The notes: generated by a model from the sequence alone, not told the origin. 64,000 nucleotides of DNA from Carcharhinus longimanus (GCA_030264375.1 JASCQW010000119.1:7926026-7990025), one strand, 5' to 3'; counted from the stretch's first letter, positions 3,531-62,477 are shown. A program made the numbers and translations.

Positions 3531-4682
3531 GTAAGTAAATGGTGTTGCCTGACCTATTGGCTGAAGTGTCATTTTTTGAACGATTACAGAAGCCTTAAAA
3601 TGTAAAGCAGACCTAAAGAAAACAAGTAAGTTGGACATAATGCTGACAGAATTAAGCATCGGTGAAAAAAATGACGTGTTTTACATACTATAATCGAAGC
3701 CAGCAGATATGCTTGACACAAGTTACACAATGTCTAGAAAAACATAAGTGATGNNNNNNNNNNNNNNNNNNNNNNNNNNNNNNNNNNNNNNNNNNNNNNN
3801 NNNNNNNNNNNNNNNNNNNNNNNNNNNNNNNNNNNNNNNNNNNNNNNNNNNNNNNNNNNNNNNNNNNNNNNNNNNNNNNNNNNNNNNNNNNNNNNNNNNN
3901 NNNNNNNNNNNNNNNNNNNNNNNNNNNNNNNNNNNNNNNNNNNNNNNNNNNNNNNNNNNNNNNNNNNNNNNNNNNNNNNNNNNNNNNNNNNNNNNNNNNN
4001 NNNNNNNNNNNNNNNNNNNNNNNNNNNNNNNNNNNNNNNNNNNNNNNNNNNNNNNNNNNNNNNNNNNNNNNNNNNNNNNNNNNNNNNNNNNNNNNNNNNN
4101 NNNNNNNNNNNNNNNNNNNNNNNNNNNNNNNNNNNNNNNNNNNNNNNNNNNNNNNNNNNNNNNNNNNNNNNNNNNNNNNNNNNNNNNNNNNNNNNNNNNN
4201 NNNNNNNNNNNNNNNNNNNNNNNNNNNNNNNNNNNNNNNNNNNNNNNNNNNNNNNNNNNNNNNNNNNNNNNNNNNNNNNNNNNNNNNNNNNNNNNNNNNN
4301 NNNNNNNNNNNNNNNNNNNNNNNNNNNNNNNNNNNNNNNNNNNNNNNNNNNNNNNNNNNNNNNNNNNNNNNNNNNNNNNNNNNNNNNNNNNNNNNNNNNN
4401 NNNNNNNNNNNNNNNNNNNNNNNNNNNNNNNNNNNNNNNNNNNNNNNNNNNNNNNNNNNNNNNNNNNNNNNNNNNNNNNNNNNNNNNNNCATCATAGGGA
4501 TTCCCAGTTAGTTCAGCAGTATCACATATTTGTTATTTTTCTTTTTCAGCTGAGATATGAATGAATTGAATGTTTCATCATTGGAGTTAATTAACAAAAT
4601 CAATATTAAAATAGTGGAACGTATTTTCTGATATAACACATACACGTATTTTCTTGTTTTCTATGTTGCCCGGGTCAATCAG

Positions 4683-8299: not shown

Positions 8300-8329
8300 A
8301 CTGGAGTCGTCCTACATCAAAAAAGCCTG
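8300..8329 (+). CDS. 30-nt microexon DWSRPTSKKP
   Basis: tttaaacag|...cctg|gtgagt. Confidence 0.7.
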
Positions 8330-11300
8330 GTGAGTGGCTGGACATTCTGTATCAGTTGAGGTTCTGACGGGCAACATTCCATTTTCGACAAAATGTTAGA
8401 TATTATGCAACAGAAAGTTGCTGGCATCGGAACATATTAAGGTGTGGAAAAAACAAACTGGTATTCGGAGTTAAGGCATATGAGCAGGGATCGGATGAAA
8501 TATTTTGATGAATTGGAGCAGTTGAATAATGTATCATCATCCCCCTTCCAAGTGTGCAATTGTTATTGTTCACGGGTGCAATGGGTATTGGACACAAATG
8601 GAACCTGACATGGGGACATTTTAAGGGATGCATTTAAAAAAAAAATTGTTCTATCTCGAAACTTACCTACTCGTTTATAATCCGGTGCATAAAGATTTGA
8701 CCCTTTCTATCCCTCTCTTTCATTGTCTGGTTATAATCTGCCACATTCCTAACTTGCATTCTTACCTCCTCCTTCAATTTGAATTTCCAATTTCCCCTGA
8801 ATCTGAACTGTCCCCCTGTTCAGTTTGAACTGCTATCTCCATCACCAGTGATAACACGGGCTAAGGTTTCGGTCCAGCATATGTTGAAGGATGACTGTCA
8901 CATTGACACTGATCCCGTCTTCCTCAGTGCTGGTGCCNNNNNNNNNNNNNNNNNNNNNNNNNNNNNNNNNNNNNNNNNNNNNNNNNNNNNNNNNNNNNNN
9001 NNNNNNNNNNNNNNNNNNNNNNNNNNNNNNNNNNNNNACTTTGTCCTCCTCCATCTGCACCAGAAACTCCACCATACAATGATCACTCTCCCCAAGAGGA
9101 TCCTTCACCGCAAGTTTCCTAATTCTACCCGCCTCATTACATAGCACCAGATCCAAGATGCTGTTAACTACGTGGACCACGTAAATTTTAACCGTGGACT
9201 CGAAGTTCCACTGCAATCTCGATGAGATATCTTGACCCGTGCACCAGTTCGGCAACACAACGTGCAGGTCCCTCGAATCTGGTCACAGAGAACATTATCT
9301 ACTGCCGTACGTTTGCTCTTCCCAATTGCAACTACGTTATCTTCAACATTCTTCACGTGAATGGCTCCCTGCACTACAGTGCTGCTATCAAAGGGCACAT
9401 TCTCCCTTCAGTTTCCTTTGCCGTCCACACAGGAAACAATAATATTGAATCAGTTGGACAAGGACAACGGCGGAGACACCTGCAAACCTGTCTCACGATT
9501 CCTCTACCTGCCTCACTCATAGACTCTTGTCCCTCACAACTGGCTGAGTTAAAGTTAGTTATTTAAAATCAGTTAACTGATGCTCTGCAAGTTAACAGTA
9601 GGCCATCCATTCAAACTGAAATCAAGCCAGGATATTTGTGTTCATACCAGAGGCACTGATTAATTCAGAATCCCTTCTGCAATGTGTAAACACATTTAAA
9701 AAATACCGAAACTACGCCCTCTTGTTTTCCTTCAGACGGGTCAGAAGCATCAACAATAACGCCTGGTGAGTGACTGGAAATTCTGTATCATCGTGTTTCT
9801 GAGGGGCAACTTTCCATTTTCGCCAAACTGTTATATATTATGCAACAGCAAGTTGTTGGCATCGGAACATGTTAAGATGTGTGGAGAAAAATAAACTGGC
9901 ATTCGGATTTAAGGCATATCAGTAGGGATCCGATTAATTATTTTGATGAATTGGAGCAGTTGAATTATGTATCCTGTTCTCTCTTCCAAGGGTGCAATTG
10001 TTATTGTCCGAGAGGGCAATGGGTATTAGATACAAGTTCAATGTGATATGAGGACATTTTAAGATATGTATTTTAAAAAAAAGTTCTACCACGAAATTTA
10101 CCATCTCGTTTCTAATTCGGTGCAGAAAGACAATCACCCTTTCTATCTCTGTCTTTCATTGTCTGGTAACTATCTACCGCATTGCTAACCCACATTCTTA
10201 CCTCCTCCTTCAATTTGGGTTTCCAATTTCCCCCGAAACTGAACTGTCCCCCTGTTCAGTTTGAACTGCTATCTCCACCACCAGTGATGACACGGGCTAC
10301 GATTGCCGTCCAGCGTATACTGGATGATGACTGTCTCATTGGCACTGATCCGGTCTTCCTCAGTACTGGTGCCAGTGTCCCAGGAACTCAAATATGTTCC
10401 TCCCACATCAATCTTTAAGCCATGCAGTGAACTGCATAATTTTATTGCCCCTTTGCCGATTTGCTCGTGGCTTAGCTTTGAATCCTGAAATGATTACTCT
10501 TTTGGCTGTGATTCTTTTTAACGTATTCCTCGTCGCTCCTAATTCTCCTTGAACAGAGCCTCTGACCTTGTTTTATCTATGTTGTTGTTAACTACGTGGA
10601 CCACGTAAACTTCAACCGCGCACTCTCAGTTCCCCTGCGACCTGGATGAGATATCCTGACCCGTGCACCAGTTCGGCAACGCAACGTGCAGGCCTCTCGA
10701 ATCTGGTCGCAGAGAACATTATCTGCTGCTGTACATTTGCTGTTCCCAATAGCAACTACATTTTCTTTCACTATCTTCACGTGAATGGCTCCCTGCACTA
10801 CCGTGCTGCTAACAATGGGCTAATTCTCCCTTCAGTTCCCTTTCCCGTCCACACAGGAAGCAATAATGTCGAATCCGTTGGACAAGGACAACGGCGAAGA
10901 CTCCTGCAAACCTATCTCACGATTCCTCTACCTGACTCACTCATAGTCTCTTGTCCCTCACATCTGGCTGAGTTACAATTCGTTATTTTAAGTAAGTAAA
11001 TTCTTGTTCTGCAAGTTAACACTAGGTCATCCATTGGTACTAAAATCAGGCCAGAATATTTGTGTTCATATCAGAGGCACTGATTAATTCAGAATCCCTT
11101 CTGCAATGTTGAAACACATTAAAAAATACCGAAACTATGCCCTCTTCTTTACCTTCAGGTTTGTCAAAACCATCAACTGCACCGCCTGGTGAGTGACTGG
11201 ACATTCTGTATCAGTCGTGTTTCTGAGGGGCAACATTCCATTTTCGCCAATCTGTTAGATATTATGCAACTGAAATTTGTTGGCATCGGATCATATTAAG

Positions 11301-14300
11301 GTGTGTGGGAAAAAAAAAACTGGCATTCGGAGTTAAGGCATATCAGTAGGGATCCGATGAATTATTTTGATGAATTGGAGCAGTTGAATGATGTATCCTC
11401 TGCCCTCTTCCGAGGGTGCAATTGTTACTGTCGGAGGATACAATTGGTATTGGACACCGCTTCAAGCTGATATGCGGACATTTTAAGGTTTGTGAGAAGG
11501 GGAGGTTCTTCATACAGAAGTTGTTGGGTATCGGGAACGAGCCGCCAGGGGGTCTCGTCGAAGCAGGCACAATGTCATCACTGAAGAGATATATGAATGG
11601 GAGAATAAGGAGGATTTACACAGGGTAGGACCGATTAAGGGGAGAAGATGCATTTTTGTTGAGACATCATGATCAGCACATGCTTCGAGGGCCGAGGGGC
11701 ATGTTCCTGATCTGTGCATCCCTTTGTTCTTTGTTCTTTGATTTGAAATATTGATGGAGGCAAAGTTCCCATCATCTTCAGCAGATTTAGGGAAAATGTC
11801 TAGTCGGCACATTAGCAAGTAGCTTTATTTTAGAATGTATTGCCACTCCAGACACTGAGAGGAAGATTAGCAGAAATATGCACTTAATTCCAAATTTTAT
11901 AATCGACAGTCATAAGTTTGTATGAGTGATTTAGTTGTTGGTAGATCCGTTTATATTAATGATCTACAGGTAGGGACAGATGAAACATGGATATATTTGC
12001 AGATGACACAAAACAACTGGGAAAGCAGGATGTGCTGAGATGATAGTTAGATTACAAATGAATATGACAAGCTAAGGAATGGACCAGAATTTGCAGACGG
12101 AATTTAATGTGGATAAATGAGTAGGTAGGTGTTTTGGCTGGGTACATATAAAGAAATAAAAGCGTAAATTATTATTTCAGTGAGGAACGAGAAAAAGGAA
12201 ACAACGCCTGTGCAGAGGTATCTGGGTGCCCATTTTTGCATGAGTTATAGAAATGAGGTATGCATGTGCAGAATGTTAATAAGAAGGCGAATTTAATCTT
12301 AGTCTTTATTGCAAAGTGTTTCGATTGTACAGGTAGAAAAAAAAGAAAGCGTTAAACTGAGATAAAACGTGGGAGCGTACTTAGTGTATTCATGTATTCA
12401 TTTTTCGTCGGCTTCTTTGGGGGAGGATGCCACGATACTGGAGGCAGTTTAGAAGAGGTTTAACAGATTGATTCTAGGTTTGTACGGGCTATCGTATGAG
12501 GAATGGTTGAGCAGCTTGATGTTTTTACTCGCTCGTGTATACAAGGTTGAGGGGGACTTGGTTGAAGTACATAAATTGTTCCCTTTTTCAGTAGTCCAGG
12601 ATAAGAGGTCATTGTTGTCGTGCAACAAGTGGAACGATAAAGAGAAAGTTCAGGAGCAATTACCCATGGAAGGTTATGAACCTTTGAAACACACTCCACA
12701 GAGTGTAGCAATGGATACAGAAGAGTGATAAATGAATATTTGATCGAAAATCGGATAAAGTGGTTAGGGAAAATGCAGGGTAGTGGTTTTAGGATGAGGT
12801 GCAGATTAGCCATGATCATACAGAACGGTGGAGCGGGCGTGAATGGCTCACCTACCGATTCCTGCTCCTAATTCCTACGTTCATATGTTCATTTGTCATG
12901 GAACCGTTTGGCTTCAAAGTTCATATGACTATTGAAGTTTTACCGGAATTCATTTGGCAATTTTGCCAATTTCCAAATTTTAACAGAAAATAAATTAATA
13001 CTGAATATGCAAGGAATGAATCGTAATGACAGACGCCATTTGTCTTTATAACAGTGCATGTTTATCTTTGAAAATCGACCATTGAAATGACAAAGCACAT
13101 ATATAGTGTCCGGCTGCCTAAAATGAAGTCTACGATTAATATGTACGAACACTGCTATCTATTAGTCCTTTCGAATGGGGCTTTGGTTGGCAGCAAATGA
13201 GAAAAAAAAGCATTTGCACTATTCCCTATAATCAACATTTTGGACGACGTCTAAGGCACTACTGTGTGCATATGATTCAAATACAGGTAGAAATACAATC
13301 GTCTCCACTTTGCTAAATGCACATTTCGTTTCACACAAAGAATGTTCAATAGCATGATGTACAATGTATCGCAAGTTACTGGCAAACATGCTTAACATAA
13401 CAAATGCCTGTTGCTTGCCAAAAATGCAATTGCATTCTATGAACCACCGAAAACCTGCAAATTTGTATCGCGCAACATTTACAAGAAACAACTTTCCAAA
13501 CATACGGCATCTGCATTGGTGAATGCTCAAATTTAATAGAAAACTGGGGCTAGCTGTACTTTCAAGTGATACACCATGTTATTGGCGATGCTAAGTGCGA
13601 AATACGTTATCGTCCAGTTTGATGTGTGTAAAAAATAAATGTCCATCCATTCATATCGCAAGACACGTTTGTAAATATGTTAAGAAATTGCGCTGCAACA
13701 AAGCAAATTTCTGATCTCGACGACTGCCACAAAACAATTAATCGTTTTGATTACATTTGTATATATTCACTTTGTAGAAACGACTTATTATTGCTACAGT
13801 GCATTGTGAACATGTGTGCGTGTTTGAGTGTGTGCGTATGTTTCTGTGTGCACGCGTGCAAGCAGGCACTCTTGTGTGAATTTTTTTAAGTTAATGGAAA
13901 GGTGTTGGAGAGCGATATCTGATTTCTGGCGTATGGAAGTATTTCTTCTCACCAGCAACTCGTCAGAAGTTCAGGTGGAACATAATGTACTCTATCTGCA
14001 ATCAATATAACTGTAATTCAAACATAACTCGTAATGTCCTTCGTGACCAAGTAGAACATTAAAACATAAAGATATCTGCACAGATAAAACATCGAAACTA
14101 TAAATTACGGTTTTTTTTTCTCGCTTTTCAAATGCATGCGATGTTACACTCCTTACTTAACATAAGTAGCACCATATCAAATGAAGTTCAAATGTATTTA
14201 CTGTTGAACGTCTTTACTGATTATATGTTTACATTTCTCTGAACCAGGAGCAACGACTGTGCACAACGAACTAGGTAAGTGCATTTTTTTAACAATACAT

Positions 14301-17300: not shown

Positions 17301-20300
17301 TCTCATCTGTAGATACTTAATTTCAGGTATTAATTCATTGAGTTAAAATTCACCACCTGCTGCGGTGGGATTCGAACCCGAATCCCCAGAACACTTGCCG
17401 AGTTCCTGAATTAATAGTCCAGCGATAATACTGTCAGGCCATTGCTTCCCCGTAAAGATACTAGTTAAATTAGGAACATTCCGATGAAGCCTTCCCTCCC
17501 AATTATCAAGGAAACGCTGAGGACGAAAGGAAGAACCCGGAGTGCAGCCGCCATGGTGCAGAAATAAATTATTCCACTTTTCAAGAGTGCATGCAGCAAC
17601 AACGGAAAGGTTCGATTGACAATCAGTTCATCGTTAATGTCATAAACAGTTGATGCAAAGGTATGAAGAATCGCTTTATAGTTATTTCCACTGATGTTTT
17701 ATTAATATTTTAAGATAAATGTGAACAACTTCTGCAAGACCTCAGTAAGTGTGACAATTTCTTCGTTAGGAAGAACATTAGTCTCATTCAGCTGTACAAT
17801 TAATGAAATAGAATGTTAACCGTTCTTATGTCATCTTCGTTGATTTCCTTAAGATAATAATTCATGTTATTNNNNNNNNNNNNNNNNNNNNNNNNNNNNN
17901 NNNNNNNNNNNNNNNNNNNNNNNNNNNNNNNNNNNNNNNNNNNNNNNNNNNNNNNNNNNNNNNNNNNNNNNNNNNNNNNNNNNNNNNNNNNNNNNNNNNN
18001 NNNNNNNNNNNNNNNNNNNNTTACGTAATAACTCACCGGAGAGACATGTTTAACATTTCGACATGAGCCTGGAACCACGCCTATTTCTGTTCAATTCCAT
18101 ACCAAATCCTTGCATACTATGCTTAATTTTCTGCTGTAACACCCTGCGGACCCGAGCATTGCAATACCCTGACGATGTTGTACAATAGATCACGAATTTT
18201 GTGAAGTATTGTATTGTAATTAAAACAAAGAAAAACATCTCAACGTGCTCGAATGATTGCCTCAGCACTTACAGCGCCATTCAAGTTCGAAAATAGCTCT
18301 GCTGCTCCTTGTCTTTTCATCAAGCACTCAATTAAGAAATGTGAAGCCCGCTTTATTTTCGTTCTTCTTTTTTCGGCCTTTTCCACCCTGTCGCAGTTTT
18401 GTTTTTCTTTTACCAAAGCGACTTACCTTGCGTTCTTTGTCCATAATCCCCATTATTTGGATGTCTGAGTAACGTGTGATATCAAAAATGTGAATTATCT
18501 GACTGCTTTTTTGTGTCGATCCGATTGACATTCGACTCTACAATATAGCACGGAACGTCCATTTAAAGTCACATACAGTCCCATAAGTATTCCAAACATG
18601 ATTACTTTGACAGCTGACATTCCAATGTTACAGGTGTTCCAAGCTGCAGCCCTGCGTTCCTTTGAAGGAAGTGGTTATATTTCCCTGTGTAGCACTCAAG
18701 TCTGTCGGGCAAATTCTTGAAATTTTCCCTCTAATGTGTTCACTGCAGCAATTTGGTTCACAACGCAGCAACTTGTTGAAACAGTTATCCTACTTCGTTC
18801 AGATAGGAAGACAGAACCCGACTGTTTTAACAGTTGGATGTGAATAAACGAATGACATTTTTCATTAGAGGCCAGATTGCTTCTAATATTCAGCGGTCAA
18901 TTACTATACTAATAAACTTGATGCAAAAAAAAGAAATGATATTTAAATATGACACGGTTTAATTCAACTGGCCAGCCATTCTCTCCAAATTATTTAACTT
19001 CATAATGTGCAGCGAATAGTTGTAAAGACAAGAGTATCAACTTTATTTCCTCAATAAAAAAAAACAAGTTATTTGTTTTACTTTACGTATTTCATTGAAT
19101 GCAATGCTACGTGTATTTTCAAATAGTGAACCAACATATGACCCTGACACAAGGTAAGTACAGTTACTCATTACATTTCTTAAGAAAATGTTTTTATCAT
19201 TAGATCATACAAATCCGATCCCAACGTCATCATTTTGTTCATTTAATCCCGATCTTACTTCCCTTCAGTTCTGTCGAAGGTCGAGAGGAGAGAAGCAGAT
19301 GAACGACGAGGATGTTACACTTGCCGTGGATCACATGCAATTACGGTGTCTGGGTGTTTCCCATAATTCATAATTAAGCTAAAAAAAAACATATTTTCTC
19401 CCCGTTACTCAGCCTTCCTTCATCGAAATCTGACCATCGCTGTGATTTATTAGAGTGCAAAAGAAGCACCAATAACTCGACCCCGGTGCTCGACTCCATT
19501 ACAACGCGGACGGAGACCAGAATTCATCCTTCCCCCATCCCACGAACCTGCCATTATCACAACCGGTATCGGACCTGGATTTCCACACTTTTTCTCTTTG
19601 TTTTTCCCCTATGTCCCCAGCTCTTCTTCCGACCACATCGGCTAGCACTAAATGTTCCTCATTCAACGGCCCACGAAGCTTTGACGTGCGACCTTCCTGC
19701 CACAGAGCTTAACTACAAACATCCCTCGATTCTTCGCATCGCTTATCTTCCATGAAAAGCGTGGAACTCAAACACCCAAAACAACCACTCCCTCGTTATC
19801 TGATGATTAAAAGCATCAGTCCAGTTTGCCCACCGGCGATGCCCAACAAACATGATGTCATACCTCTCTACATTATATCCAAACATTTTGACTGTTAACT
19901 TCGTATAAGTCTGTCGTTGCTCATTCCGCATTTGAACACAATTTACAGAAAACTGCTCCAATTAAACTGCGGCTTGCTTTTCTTCTCTACTATCCCTTTC
20001 GAACTGCATTTCCGATCCACGGAAGCAATGGGTTCCCGGGATCTCTGCAGTCCTAGTCTCAATGCTTGGCAATTCATTTCGCAACGATTTGCCAGGCTGG
20101 GACGCATACAATTTGATAAGGCTGAGTTGGAACTGAATGCACATCCGACACTGCATTCGACTTTTTTTTTACTTTCTTGCCCTGAACACCAAAAGATGAG
20201 ATGTTGCTACAGTTAACAAATTGTGGTCTTCATCATATTTTTCCATACCAGCATATTGATCCATAAGTTTCCTTCGAGTTTCTTTGGCCAACTTTGGTTC

Positions 20301-41300: not shown

Positions 41301-41805
41301 GGTGACCTTCCTTTCTTAAATCATGCGTTCAAATGGAAAGCCTGAATTTCACGGAAATAGATGAGTAGGCTATGACTGTGTGGATTTCTGTTACCTGACC
41401 ATGTCATGAAATTACAACCAAACTGTCAAGTAAACACAGTTTCACTTACATTTGTTTCGCATTTTGCCCTGCCGTATTGACAATATTATTTTATTGACGA
41501 CTCTTCAAGCATGTTTCTCTTTCAAATGTATTTTTTACAGAATTTGTAAATTCAGGGAAATGGACCAATTATGCTGTGCTAAATTCTTCACGATTCTAAA
41601 AAAAATGTTGATTTCATTTGTTTTTAGTGTTTTAAATATACGGCTTAACTTCATCTAAGTTTGCTTTTTAACTTAAGTTTTAAACCATGACATTTCTGAC
41701 TTCCAAAATTATGCCTTCTGTGTTTTTTTTTTGTTTACAAAAATCAGAAAGCATACAATATTCACAATCTAGTATTGTGTTACCTATTTGTACTATAACA
41801 TTATA

Positions 41806-41840
<35 letters not shown>

Positions 41841-53800: not shown

Positions 53801-56800
53801 CAGATAGATTTGTACGTTAGGCAGAAATAGGTTAATATATCTAAAGTTGTGTTGCCCTTTTCATTTCACCGGACAGGCTCCATTCAGACCTTTTTCTCCA
53901 ATGGAATTTTATGAATTATTTATCTTCCAGCCATGCATGTAACATTAATTTAATTGACTCAGGGCTTGTCGTTTCACAAACGAATAGGGGACGAAATTCA
54001 ATGTTATGAATAACATCTGCGGGCAAATTGAATTTAATTGGTGAAATTTTATGGCAATGTTATTTTTTGAAATTCCATGTACTTTGTGTTAATAATTGAA
54101 AGCAAATATATAAATATTATACGCCAGATGATGCTAATGCCGACTACCTTAATAATCAATACAGAATTGTCGGGCAATATTGTGGAAAACCTACTACCAC
54201 TGCTGCCAATGCTCGTTCTCTGGTATCTTTAGGGTGCAAAATGGAAAATATCAAGCAAAGAAATCTCATGAAAGAAGTGCTTGATTCTGCTTACATTGTC
54301 AATGGCTGTGCATGTTCTGCCCCTGAACTTGACGTGCATTTATGAATCTGAGTAGAGGCATTATTGATGGATATTTCAAGTTCCCTTATATGCCGCCCCG
54401 CAATTTCGGATTCAAAATGAAAAGGAAACTAAGAGAGGATAAACATAAAAGAAGTATAGAAAAGAGTGTTACACAGCAAATGAAATGCTCATTCCCAGAA
54501 GGTGTCCTTGCTGGAATCATGGAGGACCAGACGATTGATTAACTTGAAGGACCAGTCTCTTTATAGGGTGATTACACAAGCGCTGAAAGTTAGAAAACTC
54601 GCCCTCAGTAATGCTTTTGCAAAGCAATCATATATATTATTATGAAGGCCAAGTCGACATCAGTAGACTGCAACTCAGAGTCCCACCGTTAGGGGAAACA
54701 TGACCTGTATGTCGCAGCGCTGCACTGCAAGAACATTTTTTTTGAAAAAGAAACCCGTAATCAGCAGGTTAAACGTGAGTGAGATTCGTACATTGCTGAA
54801 TGTTATAACGATTAGTGACTCATGTTTGAAGACTTGTGGCGAAAAACAAATGTATCGTGTTGGGAGCGGAACGGTGAAATGTAGAATTTGAAGTATGCAT
54901 AAGCCAATCGACCGTTCGGGCTGCTCTACCATTCATTTTGATCATGGCTGTTCATGAATTCAATATCCTGATTTCCCCCTCATCCAGTATTTATTGAACT
55001 TTTTCAGCTCTCGGACTGTTCCGAATTTCCTTTTGAAATAAGGAACTGCTTGCCCGATGCCATTTCCAAGTACCATTCCGTCAGACAGCAGATGAACAGA
55101 CACCTTCATCTCACGAGCCGCGGTGTTGAAGGTCTCCAATATCTATACCCGATATCTCACCACTTCAAGGATCGTATGAAGGACTGTTCTCACAACCTTG
55201 TTAGCCTTCCCGGCTACGCAGTGAACTGACCTTCAAACGCACCTGCTTTATGACAGTGAGTGGCGCATTTTGGTCTCAAAGTTTATTCATTAGTGTCGCA
55301 AGAAGGCATAAATTTACATTGCAATACAAGTAATGAGCCATTGCCATAGTCGCCATGCTCTGGCGACTGTTCGAGTACAACGAGGAAACATTTAGCATGG
55401 CATTTGCACGTAACTATCATGTCTGTCAGACTGTGAAAGTACGCTGACACACCCAAAACACACTCCGGCAGACATGGTTGAACGTGCAGAATCCACACAA
55501 GCCGGGAATTGAACCGAGTTTGCCAGCGCCCTGAAGCAACATTGTTACGCACTGCGACCGTGCTGCCCAAATGTTTTTTTTCCGTCTCAACAGTAAGCTT
55601 ACATTAACACTATGATAAAGTTATTGGGGAACTTCCGCACTCACCACACTTCACTGCCTTTTCGGCTACACTGGGGGGGAATTTAGCATGACTAGTGGAC
55701 CTAATTGTCGCATACTTCGGGTGTGGGAAGGAAGTAGAGCATCCTGGGGAACATCATCCAGAAGGACATGTGGACTTTGCATCGACAGTGAACTAATACA
55801 GGGATCAAATCTGTGCCCGTGGTGCTTTGAAACGGCAGTGCAATTTATGTTCCACAGTGCCATCCTCTGTGCATCCATACAGTTCCGTGCATGAACAATC
55901 AATACTTAATATCGGAATGTGTTGTTCTTATATATGTGTATATGCACGGCAAATTTGCTGTGTTGATCCCTAAATCTTTGCTGTCTTCATACCAAACATC
56001 ATCCATCCTGAGGCTTGTTATGGGATGTTTCCTGCAGTCGTTATTGCCTTTTTTCACTACTGCACCGCCCCATCCTCCCGCTCCCCATTAAGCGCCACCC
56101 GCACCAATTCTAAAGCGGACATATTATTTAATGACTATCTCAGCAGAATAAGGGGAAAATCTTCCCTCTAGATTTGAACATGTTGCATTGTCCATCGAGT
56201 ATTAATTACAGCAGCTTTACTAATGTTGTATGTTTGATGTTGTCTGTATCTCACTGTTACATTTTTTAATCCATCTTGTGAACGCCTTGCATCCAGCCGT
56301 AGTTGCTTTGTCCATCATGGTTTGATGTACGATCATCCTGTCGTTAAGTCCTTTGTTTTTTTTGTGCAATGTTACTTTTTTCTTTCAAATGTCTTACCAT
56401 TCACATCAGTCATATACTGCAAGGGTCGTGGGATCCGTGGTTTGCTTGCAATAGGACAGGCGATCTGTCTTTCCTCCAGAAAGAGTGGGAAGGATTGGTG
56501 GTGAGAAGAAGTTTTTTTCAGGAAATCATAGATTTTCAAAAATTAAGAAGAAGAGCATTTGGCTGATCAAGTCTGACCATAATCTTTGAAAGATGAACTT
56601 CACAGCATTCTCTCTCTACCCCATTGATCCACGCGTTTGCCACTACTGAAATACATAACCAACGGATTTTTGAAAATTGTGGGGCACTTTTGCATTACGT
56701 ATCAACCTGAGGCGCAACGTGTGGGATTAGGCGGATGAACCCAAAACAATCCCTCATATATATATAAAAGAAAAAAAAACGTGCGAACTCCACAGCGTCT

Positions 56801-59800
56801 TCCAACGCCTGATTCGAATCTGTGTCTCTGGCACGACTAGGCAACTGTTCTAACCACTCCCGCCACAGCCCTAATAAAATATACTTTGCAGTGTTTTTGT
56901 CGAATGTGTAAAGCTTGATATTTCAGTGGCATGGAGACAACTTAATATCCGAATGCTGTTTCAGGACCAATTGCATGCGAAGGTATCATAACGATACCTC
57001 GATAAAATTGAGTGAGAAATTGAGTACCAATGGATCAAGTATTTTAAACAAGAAAACAACATCTTTGGTTATACTTCTTATTGAATGATCAATCGGGCTT
57101 ATATTATGAACATAGAGCATGCCCCCGATTTTTTTTTATATCATCTTCTGGAGTGCCTGAGATCAGAAATCTTGGCGATGGATTAATAGTTCATTTTTCA
57201 CGCATGCGCCCAGTATAAATTCGCACTTGTTTTCGTCTGATAATTACAAGCTACCCTCCACAGAAGGAAGCACACTGCACAGTTAGTGATTAGCCAACAG
57301 AAAAAGAAAACACCGTTGCAGGAATAAAAAATCATGCTGCATTCAAAATTCTGCTTTATTTCAATGTTTGGCAGGGCTGGGAACAAATACTGAATTTTTT
57401 GGGCGTATTCTTACCGTCACGTCCGCCCGAGGTACGTACGATCCCGCCTGAGGCCAATGGAGAATGCTATTCTCGAATCTCGCCCGCCCCTGCATTCAGG
57501 CCTGGCGCGCCAATAAGATGCTGCCACTGTTTTATAAATCCGCGATAATCGCGTTGAATCCTCCAATTCGTCTTCACAACTGTGCGGCATCTCTTCTATT
57601 GCTTCACATCACCAAAATCAATCAATAATTTAAAGAAGTGAAAGATAATTTGTTATTGTCGCGTTCGCACGTCAGGTCTGCAATTCGCAATGCATTACTA
57701 CTGAAACTTCACTCGTTCTGTTGTTATAACTTTCCATAAATTGCATTTATTCTATTTTAACGTTATGACCTTTGTTCGAAGAAATTTCAAATGTCTTATT
57801 TCCGATTTCGNNNNNNNNNNNCCCAACCCCACATCCAATGTCGAGCACTCAGTTTTGCCAAACATTTATTTTTCAGAGCTTCAGGAACTTCTACAAAAGA
57901 CAAGTAAATAACCAAAGCTATTTTCTCTTAATGATTGAATGACTGCAACAACGGGAGACAATTTATAGTTAATGGCCGGCTTATGCATCTCAAATACTGT
58001 GTTTTTGGTGACAAATTTGTCAACGTGTTCTAAGTTTGTTTTTGGGGCAAGCATTCAACAAACACCGTCCAACGCGCGATCAGATAGTAAGTTGTTTGAA
58101 ATCAGAATATGCCATTACCGGATTTGAGCATAGACAATAACGTCCGCTATAATCATATTTCCCAAATGAAAGCAGCTGCTTGAAATGTGTTAGTAAAACA
58201 CTCAAAGCCAGAAGTTTGAAATAGCGATCGACGTGAAAACACAAGATGAGAGCGAACATGCGTTTTTTTTTCCCGTAAAGTTAAACCTTTCCTGATGTCC
58301 GTAAGAGTCAGTTGTAGAGAATTCACCTCCCAGAAGCCAGACATTTAACTTTCCTGTTGAAGAAACTGTCCTGCGAATATGACGACGATTCGCGTCTTAC
58401 TCACTTATAGTAACTGTTGAAATAACACTAATATGTTCAGATTTATTTCGAAATATTGGTGATGTGATGTCACGTTGTTCTTTTAGCAAAATAAATTTGA
58501 AATATGTAACTTGATGATAAAAATCGCAACCTAACGTAGAAATAAGAATATGATGATCATAGAGAATAAATGTTGAAATGTTTTGCTAATAGTTTGCTAC
58601 ATTCATGCTAATTCTGCATCAGACCTATTTCATGCAAGAACAGAGGAGTAATACCCTGCCGAAAAAAAGCGGAAAAATCGTTCAGATTTTGAACTCTGGC
58701 CTGAAAAAATAACATATGCAACACATCGTCTTTTCGAGTTTGATTTGTTTGATCTCTGAAAGGGCATTGTCGAAAATACGTTTGATGTGCCACTCGTTCT
58801 TAGACGTTAAGGTCGCTCACTAAATACTTCCCTTAAAAGAGCGCCCCCTTCACAACTCATCATGCTTTGACCTCGCACAGAGCAATAAGTCAATTAAACA
58901 GAAATTGTCAACTATATGTTCCAGAATTTTGAGCGAGTATTCGCCCCTGGTTAAGTTCGTCCAGTTATGTTGTTATTAGGAAAAAAAAATCATTTCCAAT
59001 GCTATCAACAATCAATGGTACCGTTATATGGTTAGATATAATGGGATATAAAGGAAATGACAATAACGTTTAGAACTGATTTATTAGTCTCAAGTAGGCT
59101 TACATTAGCATCACAATAAAATTAATGTGAAATTCCGCTCGTCACCACATTCCAGCCTGTTCAGATAAATTCACGTAACCAGCACGTTTTCAGACTGCTA
59201 AACCTGCAAACGAACGTACGGTTTACGAGGAGCAACATGGTGTAGTTCGTACTGTTTTGAAATTCTAAAAGATCATGGATGATTTGATTGTGGCCTTAAT
59301 TCCCGATTCAACGTATCGCTAATAACGTTTCAATACACGGAGGAGATTGTTGCCGACAATTCATTCTCACCTGAGGGAAATAAAACGCCGGATCCTAATC
59401 TGCATCCTAGTTTGCAGATAAAGAGGCTTAATTCATTTCTCTCGTCCTGGTCTGCACCATGAACAGAGTAATGATTGTTTGGATACACTCCGTCAACTTG
59501 CCTTTGGATCTCATATGTTGCAATGGGAGCTAGTTTCATTCTTCTCTCCGACTTTTATTCTAATCTCATCTTGTCAATACTTCCATAATAAGATGAATTC
59601 CTGAGGCATGATAAATCCATCAGCCAAGCGAATCTTCCCTGAACCGTTTGTAAATAAGTTTACTGCTTATTTAATGGACATGACGAACCGGTCCACAGTA
59701 ATCCACATGCAATTTGTTTTTTACTGCTTATTTAATTGAAATAACGAAACTGTCCACAGTAATGCAAATGCAGTTTCATCAACTCCTTGTTAAATGTAAA

Positions 59801-62477
59801 TATAACGGTCGTCTTCAATATAATTTGACTTACATTGATTGTTGTTATATTCAAACGCCTAAAGTGTAGCTCTGGTGCGCGGACAAAATATAATAAAACG
59901 TGATTTTATCTGTTTTCTAGTGAACACATTGTTTGAGTCAGAAAAAGGTATGTTGTGCCACAAAACAACGTGTAGAAAAGATGATTAAGTTGGGATTTAT
60001 TTCATGTAGACGGAAACAAATAAAACACAAATATCAAATCAGGAATGTTGCAAGTGTTAACGAAATGCATGTATGAACAGAATGATGCACAATGAATCGC
60101 ATTCAGAATATTACAACTCGATCCATTTTGCAAGAGAGAGACAAAAAAGAAACACTTGAGCACTGAGTTCAACATCAGTACATAACGGCTCTATTTAATA
60201 CATGGAAAATATTATTCTAGATGCCAATTTGTGCCATCATGCCCTCTTATTTGAAATATTGTTCAGACGCAATTAAAGTGTGGAAATCTTCGAAGAGCAC
60301 CTCCCTGGAAGGATAAATATTTTTATAAATGTATAAAAAGGAAGAGGCTGGCTAGGGTGAACGTTGGTCCCTTAGAGGATGAGAAGGGGGACTTAGTGGT
60401 AGGGGATGNNNNNNNNNNNNNNNNNNNNNNNNNNNNNNNNNNNNNNNNNNNNNNNNNNNNNNNNNNNNNNNNNNNNNNNNNNNNNNNNNNNNNNNNNNNN
60501 NNNNNNNNTTATTGAATGGCGGGGCAGGCTCGAAGGGCTAGATGGCCTACTCCTGCACCTATTTCTTATGTTCTTATGTTCTTATAACTTACTGAAAAAA
60601 AAGAGAACATGTGTTGTAGAAGTTCGACTTGACTTGCTCAAACACTTACAGTCTACATAATGCTAAAAAAACGTTGGGAACAATTGCAACTTGTCTAAAA
60701 TGTTAGCATTGTTCATATCGTTTCCGTCTTCTTGTTTTCTCTCCTAAATTATAGTGAAGCTGTGTTGAAACATCTGTGAAGGATGCGCAGAACGGCAATG
60801 TGCATATTTCACAAGCGCATAAAAAAAAAAGTGGTCCAACAATAATTGTGTTGTACAGGAACATTTCACTTCCTGTTTGTTTTGTTTTAAGAAATGTCTT
60901 TGACATTCAAATAAAAGATCTGCGACTTCAGCATGCAATGTCCTAGTATGTTCTGAATAACGGTATGATACAGGTCTCTTGATACTGCCATGAGTGAACT
61001 TGGAAACAAATGGCGTGCTATAAATTTTATATTTCGAACAAAATGAGAAATAAGATGCGAACATCACCGATTCTTTCTGACCGAGAAAGCTATGGCGTTT
61101 CGTTTCAGAGGTTAAGAAGTTTGAAAGTAATCGTGAGGATCATGGTTCGTGTCAATTATTCGTGCCACAATTATCTTTGGAAGTTAAATATATTGAAAGA
61201 ATTGTTAGTCCTTACAGCGCCCAATCGATGTATCCTAGCATAGAGTTTTGAGTGGTGGGGACAACACTCGAATTTCCTTACAAATGTATACAGTTTGCAG
61301 TTGGACATCCTGGTAATATATAGGAAGTCCATCAATCGTAAACATCAAAATGGTTCTTCTCCAAATGTCATGTGTTCCAGATATTCTGTAAAGCTGTAAA
61401 GTAACATCTGCAACATAATCTGTACACAATGTCGCATTGTTATGTCACTCTCAATCAAATATTCAGTTACTTTTTGAGGTTTGCCACTCCACAAGCTGAA
61501 CATTAACTGCAATCTAGACAACAATAATTATTGATGTGCAATTCAAATAATCATTGGAACCCTGCATTATTTGCGATTATAAAGAAATGTGTCCACTTTA
61601 CTCGATTTTTTTCAGTAGAAAACAAATTATAACGGAGAACAAAGAAAGTTGCAACACAGGAACTGGCCTTTGGGACATTCTGTCTGTCTGAAATAAACCA
61701 CCCGACACTTCCGAGGACCACACCCCTCCATTCGCATTCAATGTACATAATTGTACATAAGCCCTTAAAATTCACTATCGTATTTGTTTCCACGACCAAC
61801 CTTGGCACTGAGTTCCACAAACACATCACCACGCCTTCAACCTATGCCCCCTATTAAGAGACAATTCCATTCTGGGCGACAAAAAAAAACGCTTCCAACT
61901 ATCCACTCTGTCCATGCTGCCGATCATCTTGTAGACTTCAACCACTTTCTTTCCAGCGAGAACAGACCATGTTTCTCCATCCTTCCCAATTACTGATGCC
62001 CTCCAAACCACACGGCAACGTGGTAAAGCTTTTGATGTTCCACGCATTGCTCTTTAATTTTGGAAAGACGTTACTGAATTACTTAGCAACATTGCACGTC
62101 GAAGCACTTTGGTACAATTTCCGCTTTAGCCCCAAAGCACTAAATTTTCAAAAGAAACAGTCGTCAGTATGTATCAAGTTCGCAAGTTTCTAAATGTTAC
62201 TAGTACACGTTCGGGAGTAGTCTTGCAAAAGTCATAATGTCGCTCCTCCTCAATATTAAATTATTGCATAAGTATTAATGTGACTGTTTGTTCATGTTGT
62301 GTTGCATTTCTCTCAAAATGGATATGGAATCACAATAAAGTGTGCGTCGCATATATTCTGTGATGCAATTAACATGTGAAAAGCAGACAACAATGTCAAA
62401 TAACTGTATGAACTTTTTGAAACCTGCATACGTCTTAATTTACGTGACAGAAGAGACCGTGAAGAAGTGTGAGAATG
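8300..62477 (+). CDS. Partial multi-exon gene built of at least 20 phase-1 microexons, encoding an S/T/P-rich segment plus a coiled-coil-like region; identity unknown
   Basis: 20 AG|exon|GT units, all 3n long (13x27, 4x30, 3x36 nt). Spliced frame is open: DWSRPTSKKP-DGSEASTITP-GLSKPSTAPP-GATTVHNEL-DKCEQLLQDL-MNQHMTLTQ-ENSRLQDELNNA-EYERKTLKQ-EQLLQKKEQ-ALDEKCPSS-DQRVIDLKE-ENTRLQNGLKNA-NDKLKQVQQ-GKHLEKKEQ-AFDKKCPTT-NQRVLELRE-ELKIVKQKFETK-...-ELQELLQKT-MNTLFESEK-EETVKKCEN. Confidence 0.8.
9736..9765 (+). CDS. 30-nt microexon DGSEASTITP
   Basis: cttgttttccttcag|...cctg|gtgagt. Confidence 0.8.
11159..11188 (+). CDS. 30-nt microexon GLSKPSTAPP
   Basis: ctcttctttaccttcag|...cctg|gtgagt. Confidence 0.8.
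11480..12890 (+). mobile_element. Two degenerate CR1-like LINE 3' fragments (~11480-11740 and ~11870-12890)
   Basis: tatattaatgatcta..tttgcagatgacacaaaa (FADDTK-like) near 11955-12015; CR1 3' UTR cagattagccatgatc...cctgctcctaattcctacgttc. Confidence 0.75.
14248..14274 (+). CDS. 27-nt microexon GATTVHNEL
   Basis: catttctctgaaccag|...ctag|gtaagt. Confidence 0.8.
   Translation, partial: EQRLCTTN
14872..15178 (+). mobile_element. tRNA-derived SINE (HE1-like)
   Basis: cacggtgacacagtggttagcactgctgcctcacagcgccagggac...gagtttgcacattctcc...ctctatgattctg. Confidence 0.88.
15380..15870 (-). mobile_element. Highly degenerate CR1-like 3' fragment
   Basis: Resembles the CR1 3' end at 22740-23150 (gagaattcctcagactcag...ctaaat; gaatattgcagatctggtgtcac). 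Confidence 0.5.
17130..17455 (-). mobile_element. tRNA-derived SINE of a second family
   Basis: gcggtgggattcgaacccg is a reverse B-box; its tail resembles the 3' end of the LINE-like fragment at ~33680. Confidence 0.7.
17715..17744 (+). CDS. 30-nt microexon DKCEQLLQDL
   Basis: ttaatattttaag|...ctca|gtaagt. Confidence 0.75.
19127..19153 (+). CDS. 27-nt microexon MNQHMTLTQ
   Basis: tattttcaaatag|...caag|gtaagt. Confidence 0.8.
20671..20706 (+). CDS. 36-nt microexon ENSRLQDELNNA
   Basis: ttttcaacttcag|...gcgg|gtatga; paralog at 37364. Confidence 0.85.
22038..22064 (+). CDS. 27-nt microexon EYERKTLKQ
   Basis: cttttctcttccag|...cagg|gtaatc; paralog at 38713. Confidence 0.85.
22561..23735 (-). 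mobile_element. 5'-truncated, relatively young CR1-like LINE
   Basis: cataagaacataagaa tail; RRNFFSQRVVNLWN; KKANGMLTFI...LLQLYRVLVRPHLEYC. Confidence 0.92.
25250..25480 (+). mobile_element. Degenerate SINE, present only in duplication copy 1
   Basis: tgctgcctcagagcgacagg...ttgcacgttctccatatgtgcgtg. Confidence 0.6.
25993..26019 (+). CDS. 27-nt microexon EQLLQKKEQ
   Basis: ttgattgaatag|...caag|gtaatt; paralog at 43371. Confidence 0.85.
26591..26928 (-). mobile_element. tRNA-derived SINE
   Basis: agaacaaagaaca tail; gggaaccggagcacc...ggagaatgcgcaaactcccacagac. Confidence 0.8.
27150..27465 (-). mobile_element. Well-preserved CR1 RT fragment spanning a gap
   Basis: DTGEVPEDWRMANVVPLFKKGRRDSPGNYRPVSLTSVVGKLMERILRD. 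Confidence 0.92.
28193..28219 (+). CDS. 27-nt microexon ALDEKCPSS
   Basis: tttctttcccacag|...tccg|gtaaga; paralog at 43811. Confidence 0.85.
31956..31982 (+). CDS. 27-nt microexon DQRVIDLKE
   Basis: ttttatttaacag|...gaag|gtaaga; paralog at 47446. Confidence 0.88.
33350..33735 (+). mobile_element. Degenerate LINE-like 3' fragment
   Basis: ccatctacaag...taccttccaaaacc...gttccttc..tgtcgct...gcagctctccatcactttctc; 3' end similar to the SINE tail at 17130. Confidence 0.5.
35935..35994. repeat. (CA)n microsatellite
   Basis: Imperfect CA run. Confidence 0.9.
37364..37399 (+). CDS. 36-nt microexon ENTRLQNGLKNA
   Basis: tttccgttttcag|...gcta|gtatga. Confidence 0.85.
38713..38739 (+). CDS. 27-nt microexon NDKLKQVQQ
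   Basis: cctctctcgcag|...caag|gtaatc. Confidence 0.85.
41808..41838. repeat. (TG)n microsatellite
   Basis: Perfect TG run; absent at the corresponding site of copy 1. Confidence 0.9.
43371..43397 (+). CDS. 27-nt microexon GKHLEKKEQ
   Basis: tttgattgaatag|...caag|gtatta. Confidence 0.8.
43811..43837 (+). CDS. 27-nt microexon AFDKKCPTT
   Basis: ttttttttccatag|...acaa|gtatgt. Confidence 0.85.
47446..47472 (+). CDS. 27-nt microexon NQRVLELRE
   Basis: cttttattcaatag|...gaag|gtaaga. Confidence 0.88.
49737..49772 (+). CDS. 36-nt microexon ELKIVKQKFETK
   Basis: cttcctgtttcag|...aaag|gtcaga; continues the coiled-coil pattern. Confidence 0.75.
51640..52350 (-). mobile_element. Highly degenerate CR1-like fragment
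   Basis: Resembles the other minus-strand CR1 3' regions (gaagagtcatattgctc...gtgcgcagtggtctaaac). Confidence 0.45.
52489..52555. repeat. (CA)n/(CG)n microsatellite
   Basis: Alternating purine-pyrimidine run. Confidence 0.9.
55281..55865 (-). mobile_element. Two adjacent tRNA SINEs (~55281-55568 and ~55570-55865)
   Basis: Each has a reverse core (aacgtgcagaatccacac / acatgtggactttgcat), a reverse B-box (gggaattgaacc / gggatcaaatc) and a ccgtgctgccc-type head. Confidence 0.75.
56480..56500 (+). CDS. Candidate 21-nt microexon ERVGRIG
   Basis: ctgtctttcctccag|...ggtg|gtgaga; open in phase 1 but atypical composition. Confidence 0.35.
56640..56872 (-). mobile_element. Degenerate SINE
   Basis: aacgtgcgaactccacag...gattcgaatc...ggcaactgttctaaccact. 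Confidence 0.65.
57877..57903 (+). CDS. 27-nt microexon ELQELLQKT
   Basis: atttatttttcag|...acaa|gtaaat. Confidence 0.7.
59659..59776. repeat. ~60-bp tandem duplication
   Basis: tttactgcttatttaat...gtccacagtaat...atgca occurs twice. Confidence 0.85.
59921..59947 (+). CDS. 27-nt microexon MNTLFESEK
   Basis: ttatctgttttctag|...aaag|gtatgt. Confidence 0.8.
60325..60585 (+). mobile_element. Young CR1-like LINE (interior lies in a gap)
   Basis: 3' end attgaatggcggggcaggctcga...ttcttatgttcttatgttctta, near-identical to the reverse complement of 22561-22640. Confidence 0.88.
61630..62000 (-). mobile_element. CR1-like 3' fragment
   Basis: CLWNSVPRLVVETNTIVNFK; EVYKMIGSMDRVD...RGHRLK. Confidence 0.75.
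62451..62477 (+). CDS. 27-nt microexon EETVKKCEN
   Basis: cttaatttacgtgacag|...aatg|gtagga. Confidence 0.7.

Follow-up and report, generated by a model that had tools for sequence, protein, structure and literature searches.

Does a row of very short, splice-bounded segments in Carcharhinus longimanus DNA represent a gene, and if so, what does it encode? The stretch analysed (hereafter the window) is 64,000 nt long. A preliminary description had proposed a 54-kb gene of 20 such segments within it, at 8300–62477, joining to 193 codons and encoding a modular coiled coil. The AG and GT ends were found where they had been placed, but 22 segments were counted in that range (three of 30 nt, thirteen of 27 nt and six of 36 nt; 657 nt in total), and the recount gives 219 codons. 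The joined segments contain no stop in phase 1, as had been claimed, against 17 and 26 stops in the other phases. Candidates at 46364 (27 nt), 56480 (21 nt) and 9745 (21 nt, within the exon at 9736) were omitted from the 22 as weak or overlapping. The spacing measured 413–8104 nt, in line with the 0.4–8 kb previously given. No convincing long ORF is present in the window; the longer stretches left open correspond to runs of N, to LINE-like fragments or to frames without explanation.

Predicted microexons of the window

All predicted exons lie on the plus strand. An additional 36-nt phase-1 exon, upstream of the range first described, was located at 3590–3625 (score 23.8 with a splice model trained solely on flanking DNA), and the array goes on upstream of the window. 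Three 30-nt exons follow at 8300–8329, 9736–9765 and 11159–11188, which are copies 1, 2 and 3 of a recent tandem triplication of a 1.43-kb unit made of intron and exon (8315–11493, about 85% identical). They are succeeded by 27-nt exons at 14248–14274 (score 16.7) and 19127–19153 (8.9, with a weak acceptor and a strong donor), the latter similar to that at 59921. An old tandem duplication of about 16.5 kb (19886–47652; 19.9–32.2 versus 36.7–47.7 kb, about 66–71% identical) carries six exons in two copies. These pairs are 20671–20706 and 37364–37399 (36 nt), 22038–22064 and 38713–38739 (27 nt), 24461–24496 and 41890–41925 (36 nt), 25993–26019 and 43371–43397 (27 nt), 28193–28219 and 43811–43837 (27 nt, with a Cys-Pro hinge), and 31956–31982 and 47446–47472 (27 nt). 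Further downstream are exons of 36 nt at 49737–49772 (26.9), 27 nt at 57877–57903, whose peptide is identical to that of a paralogue exon at C119:6928803 on the minus strand, 27 nt at 59921–59947 (20.5), 36 nt at 61109–61144 (15.0, weak donor) and 27 nt at 62451–62477 (17.8), after which the array continues beyond the window.

The minus-strand and shuffle controls proposed in the preliminary description both came out in favour of the segments. With a generic splice scan, 27-nt segments were found 12 times on the plus strand of the window and three times on the minus strand. The flank-trained model detected 17 segments on the plus strand and one on the minus strand, whereas 30 shuffled versions yielded 0.3 on average. 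Over 1.064 Mb, lengths of 21, 27 and 36 nt occurred 55, 73 and 66 times on the plus strand, where other lengths averaged 14 (maximum 23), and 15, 17 and 15 times on the minus strand; 185 of the 194 segments were open in phase 1, as opposed to 94 in phase 0 and 101 in phase 2. The segments are real and well beyond chance. A read run (X1) considered as transcript support was rejected: it covers introns evenly, so that it is in effect DNA, possibly of the source sample, and therefore gives no independent support. The triplet TGC before acceptors is a neural microexon signal; as it was not enriched here (61/207 versus 1119/4014), there is no sign of that signal.

The duplications bear on the constraint acting on these exons. 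In the old duplication, AG, GT and length were retained in all six exon pairs, while the introns drifted to about 71% identity; background survival in the aligned block was 135/329 for AG and 154/358 for GT, giving a rough chance of 2.5e-7 for six of six. Second codon positions were conserved at 50 of 60 sites, versus 39/60 and 39/60 for the other two positions (p=0.014). The pN of the older duplicate pairs was below their pS (0.31 and 0.52), and the two were equal (0.43) in five younger pairs. The copies of the 30-nt exon differ from one another at 10, 13 and 17 positions per 30, versus 13–15% in their flanks; given the pN and pS values of the duplicate pairs, a case for diversifying selection rests on these three non-independent 30-nt comparisons. 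The encoded rod would lengthen through such tandem duplication of intron-plus-exon blocks.

The claim that a helical pattern runs across exon junctions holds, the three peptides quoted in its support being reproduced by exons 19127+20671, 31956+37364 and 47446+49737. The coiled coil proposed for these segments is upheld; the three 30-nt exons, which are Ser/Thr/Pro-rich, are not helical. The hydrophobic period of 3.55 was equalled in 0/1000 residue shuffles and 0/1000 shuffles of exon order. Leu and Ile occupy positions 2, 5, 9 and 12 of the 36-nt exons, position 4 of the 27-nt exons and position 2 of the 21-nt exons. Every exon would add a whole number of helical turns and so keep the register: 21 nt would amount to one heptad, 36+27 nt to three heptads, and 36+27+27+27 nt to five heptads and a four-residue stutter. 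Cysteines occur at 46 of 311 core d positions versus 19 of 1708 positions elsewhere, and the rod is composed of 17.5% Lys, 6% Gln, 3% Cys and 1% Pro.

A predicted megabase array and its B30.2 family

The extent of 54 kb was wrong, as the window covers about 5% of a unit of about 1.3 Mb. The array runs past both window edges; spread over some 1.27 Mb, it comprises about 240 predicted exons of 21, 27 and 36 nt, or about 2,250 codons. Its upstream limit, at about C119:7257709, is a 111-nt exon that is likely the second of the gene. About 50 21-nt heptad exons lie upstream of the window, at 7.4–7.8 Mb; none is secure inside it. Downstream, the array closes with an exon of 21 nt that bears a Cys, followed by a single B30.2 (PRY-SPRY) exon at C119:8528663-8529183, 540 kb past the window, where the gene would end; a similar ending is found at 9018199. 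No other B30.2 was found in the intervening sequenced part. A signal-like ATG exon at C119:8522225 stands directly ahead of the last two small exons. The exon type shifts from one part of the unit to another, and in the 5' block the likeness is to a different paralogue.

The automatic join of 241 exons has two junction stops, with about 20 false exons expected from the minus-strand control. All exons are symmetric, and a stop is created by 329 of 28,920 skip-joins; variation of length through exon skipping is possible. The segments likely belong to one shark gene of about 1.27 Mb, and it is highly probable, judging from the DNA, that they are spliced into one transcript. The 1.32-Mb stretch contains 10% N, 192 gaps and at least one misplaced contig, so that the exon order, the 5' block at 7.26–7.40 Mb and the absence of Ig and transmembrane exons are not secure.

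Six B30.2 exons, all devoid of stops, are present within 5 Mb of this elasmobranch scaffold (C119), and five of them terminate sampled microexon arrays. The heads share 35–58% identity, the closest pair (58%) being that of this gene and of a paralogue at 6.33–7.22 Mb on the minus strand, six sampled exons of which match exons of this gene in the same order. Pfam SPRY scored above cut-off for two paralogous heads; the head of this gene was assigned at 0.96 to SPRY clusters and matched the head at 9018199 with E 3.6e-49. The best matches of the head profile among solved structures were BTN3A1 (E 6e-30) and then TRIM21 (1e-24). Each family head contains 0–1 Cys; since two heads outside the family, on scaffold C81, also contain one, the low Cys content is a weak argument. 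Ordinary V-set plus B30.2 neighbours sit on C81. The suggestion of an unannotated, lineage-restricted family of symmetric phase-1 microexons is upheld. Protein searches returned no relative. They yielded 0/400 candidates at E<=1e-10 for the 9018199 head (proteins of 302–2000 aa), 0/16 at E<=1e-5 for the head of this gene (125–399 aa), and no match of the 39-aa 5' exon to 1.84 billion representatives; they are weak negatives, owing to word-index limits, to a short query and to the upper size bound of 2000 aa in the searches made with a head. No description of the family was found in the literature consulted, which took in few subscription papers.

No first exon was located for this gene, and there are N gaps of 3481 and 2906 nt on its upstream side. 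A paralogue has, at C119:9694798, a first exon that resembles a signal peptide; gaps of unknown size separate it from a 111-nt exon that is paralogous to the one in this gene. Only three distinct signal-like first exons were found in 3.6 million strand-bases, with thresholds that were chosen after the match was seen, and in the left paralogue the donor of the signal-like candidate is weak. In three paralogues, a similar and mostly polar exon of 111 or 120 nt immediately precedes the rod. Candidate exons of 111, 120 and 348 nt had no Pfam match. No RING or B-box exon was apparent in exon scans of three 5' regions.

Nature of the encoded protein

Starting from what is observed, namely the exon pattern, its frame and heptad register, the duplications, the six B30.2 exons and the collinearity with a paralogue, the reading preferred here is that of a coiled-coil rod, probably secreted and stapled by disulphides, of at least 2,000 residues and about 330 nm, with a B30.2 head and likely acting as a long-reach multivalent binder. 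This composite is given an even chance; secretion, taken separately, is rather probable. Chains would pair in parallel, and the core d cysteines would cross-link them outside the cell. The paired heads would then meet their target some 330 nm away from an anchored or bundled N-terminus, presented much as lectin heads are on collectin stalks. Recognition rather than a purely mechanical job is overall an evenly poised proposal, the most likely site being an immune surface, extracellular or mucosal. The B30.2 domains of butyrophilins and TRIM proteins are described as intracellular, and this known location is a point against the secreted reading.

The first alternative, an unlikely one, is a membrane-bound or cytoplasmic derivative of butyrophilin or BG proteins, in which the rod would be a cytoplasmic tail or a soluble actin-myosin zipper, the Ig and transmembrane exons having been lost or fallen into gaps. 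Butyrophilins, described as Ig-Ig-TM-heptads-B30.2, and BG tails of 27–37 exons of 21 nt offer a precedent, the head profile favours BTN3A1 over TRIM21, and unsized gaps do separate the paralogue's signal-like and 111-nt exons. An Ig profile built from HEPACAM2 proteins, however, matched a single exon among 38,582 six-frame segments (10% N in the DNA). This HEPACAM2 exon (C119:7559206) was rejected as the head of the gene, as the other HEPACAM2 exons are on C132 and C190 and its contig is thus misplaced. A V-set search gave 0/150 scored matches (of 928 candidates) at C119:6.3-11.3 Mb, and a scan of 1.28 Mb (7.21–8.49 Mb, with gaps remaining) for hydrophobic phase-1 exons returned six weak rows, none before the rod, where the three paralogues carry their polar exon instead. 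Also against it, Cys is concentrated at d positions. With core cysteines in the rod, and a search for Ig and transmembrane exons that returned none, a cytoplasmic tail of the BG type is probably not what is encoded; the kinship with butyrophilins and BG first suggested is upheld in general, the terminal B30.2 having butyrophilin BTN3A1 as its best match among solved structures. A type II C-type lectin was also considered and discarded (0/83 Lectin_C matches on C119).

Slightly less likely again is the same secreted anatomy with a mechanical job, the rods being bundled into a fibre or into a gel such as mucus, egg jelly, ampullary jelly or the like, in which the head only sets the register or cross-links. 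This would suit rod residues that are free to vary at fixed length and frame, the Pro-poor composition with Lys, Gln and Cys, the possible glycosylation of a Ser/Thr/Pro insert, and six paralogues of differing lengths; the divergence of heads that are nevertheless all intact rather suits distinct ligands. Improbable is a micro-exon cassette used in subsets, as in the schistosome MEG, or several shorter genes with internal promoters, without any full-length rod. The symmetry of the exons, the rarity of stops in skip-joins, the signal-like exon near the 3' end and the changes of exon type along the unit are in keeping with it, but the heptad register needs the exon order, and this order is conserved in the collinear paralogue. 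Register and conserved order both speak for splicing that normally joins each exon to the next. That the segments arose by chance, or are what is left of a dead gene, is extremely improbable: contig C10255 does carry a fourth copy of the 30-nt unit in which the GT donor is lost, but the strand, length and phase bias, the preserved duplicate pairs, the register, the collinear paralogue and the stop-free state of six of six B30.2 exons speak against it.

The secreted rod with a B30.2 head leads to a wider proposal, put forward tentatively and at slightly less than even confidence. An undescribed shark family of megabase genes, which would rank with the vertebrate genes richest in exons (220–300 in the present one), would have repurposed the intracellular heptad-plus-B30.2 tail of butyrophilins as a secreted rod, stapled by disulphides and hundreds of nm long. 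Its length would be tuned in steps of 7, 9 and 12 residues through exon duplication and skipping, and it would form a new extracellular class of B30.2 recognition or matrix proteins.

Comparison with known systems

Titin has about 360 exons. If spliced as predicted, the shark gene rivals the most exon-rich vertebrate genes with almost only 21–36-nt exons, and is a natural test of the splicing of hundreds of consecutive microexons across 3-kb introns. About 5 Mb of one shark scaffold apparently consists of six such genes, without relatives in the protein searches made. Should the proposed architecture be true, B30.2, mainly known as an intracellular immune sensor, would be placed at the end of a giant stalk outside the cell.

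Enterophilins combine a long heptad zipper with B30.2 and are not known to carry Ig or transmembrane segments. The shark gene, in which no Ig or transmembrane exon was found, resembles them in this respect, but enterophilins, from rodent gut, are intracellular and have only a few dozen heptads. TRIM proteins also have a coiled coil followed by B30.2, but require an N-terminal RING and B-box; the 5' exons seen in the shark family are a signal-like exon and a 111-nt exon.

Schistosome MEG encode secreted proteins from 3n microexons missed by annotation (10.1101/2023.06.21.545858), and share with the shark array mostly symmetric 3n microexons. They differ in having 10–20 exons, mostly of 15 nt, and are described with neither a coiled-coil rod nor B30.2; the likeness is an analogy only. 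Vespryns (ohanin) are described as secreted B30.2-like proteins of about 12 kDa with a signal peptide, a single cysteine and a short N-terminal extension (PMC4566206), whereas the shark gene has about 2,250 predicted rod codons before its head; the likeness is by description, and a short alternative form is possible.

The chicken BG and BG-derived zipper protein form a long coiled coil from a variable number of split-codon 21-nt exons (PMC5938342), similar to the roughly 50 tail-type heptad exons at 7.4–7.8 Mb. Chicken BG has an IgV domain, a transmembrane segment and 27–37 tail exons, in an organisation described without B30.2. The exon number of the shark array is about sevenfold that of BG, with a mix of 21, 27 and 36 nt and a B30.2 end; IgV and transmembrane exons were not found. 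Butyrophilins (BTN/BTNL) are described as IgV-IgC2 proteins with a transmembrane segment and few heptads (PMC8813856, PMC12841164). The shark gene is like them in that small exons encode heptad repeats ahead of a terminal B30.2, whose closest match among solved structures is BTN3A1; it differs in its rod of about 240 exons of three sizes, in its core cysteines and in the Ig and transmembrane exons not found in sequence with 10% N. The comparison bears on the evolution of the butyrophilin/BG heptad-exon cassette in early jawed vertebrates.

Predicted microexons in the window and along the contig

The window (C119:7926026–7990025), from an assembly of 2.68 Gb, contains no convincing long coding frame in its 64 kb. 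A generic splice-site scan returned twelve 27-nt AG..GT segments on the plus strand versus three on the minus strand. To escape the selection bias of the preliminary description, a splice model was trained on flanking DNA only. At a threshold of 14, it recovered 17 segments on the plus strand, one on the minus strand and a mean of 0.3 (maximum 2) in 30 shuffled sequences, so that the plus strand is far richer than both controls that had been proposed initially. Sixteen of the 17 lie between window positions 8300 and 62477, the range first described. Adding three segments of 30 nt and three 27-mers with weaker scores (19127, 43371 and 43811) gives 22 segments of 657 nt in total (219 codons), spaced 413–8104 nt apart. 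When joined, they contain no stop in phase 1, whereas the two other phases contain 17 and 26. The coordinates, splice ends and junction peptides of the preliminary description held; its totals of 20 segments and 193 codons did not recur exactly. An additional plus-strand segment is present outside that range, at 3590. Weaker candidates at 46364–46390 (27 nt) and 56480–56500 (21 nt) were excluded from the count; the former lies within a duplicated block and has no scoring partner in the other copy. Within positions 1–640, a degenerate ~90-nt repeat lies beside a LINE-like fragment.

The array extends past both ends of the window. Over 1.064 Mb, segments of 21, 27 and 36 nt number 55, 73 and 66 on the plus strand and 15, 17 and 15 on the minus strand, other lengths averaging 14 on the plus strand; phase 1 is open in 185 of these 194 plus-strand segments. 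Between 7.257 and 8.529 Mb of the contig (C119), a cross-validated model found 254 segments on the plus strand (248 open) and 29 on the minus strand (20 open). Removal of closed and overlapping plus-strand segments left 241 predicted exons (62 of 21 nt, 110 of 27 nt and 69 of 36 nt), with 2,252 codons and a median spacing of 3.3 kb. At the standard 0.1485 nm per residue, the predicted rod would measure about 334 nm if all codons formed coiled coil. An Ig exon at C119:7559206 (L078:3181–3477) is 96–97% identical to shark HEPACAM2 proteins. It is the lone third Ig exon of HEPACAM2, and since the remaining exons are on contigs C132 and C190, the piece carrying it is misplaced inside the array. 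Because of this misplacement, the N content (10%, 192 gaps) and two junction stops in the automatic exon join, exon order is provisional and the exon count is estimated at 220–300.

Conservation and periodicity of the exons

An old tandem duplication relates window positions 19.9–32.2 kb to 36.7–47.7 kb, with 71% identity and one gap per 37 columns. Across the block, 135 of 329 AG and 154 of 358 GT dinucleotides survive; AG, GT and length are retained in all six exon pairs, for which the neutral chance is roughly 2.5e-7. In duplicate pairs, codon position 2 is conserved in 50 of 60 cases versus 39 of 60 at positions 1 and 3 each (p = 0.014). Duplicate exons share 2–7 identical residues each, indicating loosely constrained residues. 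The pN was 0.31 versus a pS of 0.52 in older pairs (n = 12), and both were 0.43 in younger ones (n = 5). The window also contains a recent triplication of a 1.43-kb unit. Among the 30-nt Ser/Thr/Pro exons, pairwise differences amount to 10, 13 and 17 of 30 bases versus 13–15% for the downstream flanks (p = 0.003 to 2e-7; three sequences, comparisons not independent). A fourth copy of the unit, on contig C10255 (L003), has AT instead of GT as donor of its 30-nt exon, and is either an unplaced copy or another allele.

Hydrophobic residues occupy positions 2, 5, 9 and less often 12 in 36-nt exons, position 4 in 27-nt exons and position 2 in 21-nt exons. On this basis, 36 + 27 nt form three in-register heptads, and 36 + 27 + 27 + 27 nt form five heptads plus a stutter. 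The strongest hydrophobic period over 15 exons (14248 to 49737) is 3.55, a strength equalled by none of 1000 residue shuffles and none of 1000 exon-order shuffles; the heptad register therefore depends on genomic exon order. Cysteine is found at 46 of 311 d positions versus 19 of 1708 positions elsewhere, d having been assigned from the hydrophobic register after the profiles had been viewed. If the coil is parallel, cysteines in its core would point to disulphide bonds between chains and so to an oxidising compartment.

Terminal B30.2 exons and their genomic setting

Downstream, the array ends with a 36-nt exon, a 21-nt Cys exon and a phase-1 exon at C119:8528663, which encodes 172 residues before a stop and is, by sequence comparison, a B30.2 domain. 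This head scores 0.96 to atlas SPRY clusters, and two paralogous heads match Pfam SPRY. A profile built from four C119 heads and two from contig C81 matched the solved structures of BTN3A1 (E 6e-30) and TRIM21 (E 1e-24). Stop-free B30.2 exons are located on C119 at 6.33 (−), 8.53 (+), 9.02 (+), 9.09 (−), 10.68 (+) and 11.29 Mb (+). Identities are 35–58% among these six and 30–39% to the two nearest C81 heads, the nearest relative outside the family being C81:94266552. The 85–102 Mb region of C81 is dense in B30.2, V-set and lectin exons; its V-set/B30.2 pairs, 7–15 kb apart on one strand, are ordinary butyrophilin-like genes.

Microexon arrays on the matching strand precede five of the six heads, as sampled at 100–120-kb steps; the single 8-kb stretch sampled for the sixth gave no match. 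The closest pair of heads is that of the window's gene and the left paralogue (6.33–7.22 Mb, minus strand). Six sampled exons of the latter have at least 70% identity to the window's gene, in collinear order: those at 7.14, 6.93, 6.83, 6.73, 6.53 and 6.43 Mb best match 7.74, 7.98 (window exon 57877), 8.08, 8.18, 8.31 and 8.43 Mb. This collinearity, and the lack of further B30.2 in the sequenced part of the interval between the window and the 8.53-Mb head, support the assignment of the window exons to that head. The array probably belongs to a family of six genes for giant proteins that combine a coiled coil with B30.2.

Left of the cluster, a PDB match identifies an exon of capicua (CIC) at 5.34 Mb (L173:4174–4311, −), and an ETS-domain exon of ERF/ETV3 type lies at 5.83 Mb (L169:~7300–7560, +); CIC adjoins ERF in human 19q13. 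Ig-domain genes occupy 1.1–5.1 Mb. Just past the 3' end of the left paralogue, at 6.30 Mb (L165:1777–2700, +), a 308-codon single-exon frame has several hydrophobic segments and is GPCR-like by eye.

The 5' end, the predicted product and known families

For the window's gene, no first exon was found, and the upstream sequence contains two large gaps. The 10.68-Mb paralogue apparently starts with an ATG exon at C119:9694798, whose 20 codons include Lys and then a hydrophobic stretch and which has a strong donor; a 111-nt exon lies 26 kb downstream of it. Only three distinct signal-like exons of this kind occur in 3.6 million strand-bases, at thresholds chosen after the hit had been seen. The same start is shared by a 111-nt exon at C119:7257709 (+), and a 120-nt homologue heads the left paralogue at C119:7220152 (−). 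The three exons begin with small and hydrophobic residues, much as at the cleavage site of a signal peptide, the remainder being polar. The 7.26–7.40 Mb block resembles the 9.7-Mb paralogue, unlike the left paralogue, which enters 21-nt exons almost directly; it could thus be misplaced, and the gene would then span about 1.13 Mb. Another ATG exon with a signal-like hydrophobic stretch, at C119:8522225 (+; L188:~2200), lies 1.2 kb upstream of the final 36-nt exon; it could give rise to a short B30.2 protein that is secreted, or be due to chance. A 348-nt open AG..GT segment at C119:7252512 (L128:2165–2512, −), between two divergent genes, has no match in Pfam.

The product would most likely be secreted, as a parallel coiled coil with disulphide staples. 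Cys-Pro and Ser/Thr/Pro inserts would kink the rod, and B30.2 heads held at its far end could bind targets by avidity as in collectins, an analogy drawn from general knowledge. A membrane or cytosolic derivative of butyrophilins or BG is an unlikely alternative. No Ig exon was found by Ig profile or V-set search (150 of 928 V-set candidates scored), the misplaced HEPACAM2 aside, and no transmembrane exon precedes the rod in a hydrophobic phase-1 exon scan of the gapped 7.21–8.49 Mb sequence. A structural protein of a gel or fibre is slightly less probable still, and an exon-skipping cassette, or several shorter genes, appears improbable. The array in the window is real and constrained, and can hardly be a relic. 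The one sequencing run examined was DNA-like.

No protein relative was found for the 9018199 head (0 of 400 candidates of 302–2000 aa, E ≤ 1e-10), the head of the window's gene (0 of 16 candidates of 125–399 aa, E ≤ 1e-5) or the 39-aa 5' exon, a short query (none among 1.84 billion representatives). The literature covered by the searches gave no account of such shark genes. Schistosome MEG genes likewise have microexons of 3n length, with no B30.2 or rod in the description consulted (10.1101/2023.06.21.545858). Vespryns, as presented in PMC4566206, are secreted B30.2-like proteins without the rod predicted here. Chicken BG is without B30.2 as described in PMC5938342, whereas the window's gene has one. 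With its heptad microexons and B30.2, the window's gene resembles a butyrophilin tail set free; butyrophilins, as outlined in PMC8813856 and PMC12841164, have Ig and transmembrane parts, of which none was found here. A variant of the exon architecture of butyrophilins and BG is encountered here at an extreme scale, in a predicted product that is probably located across the membrane from their tails.
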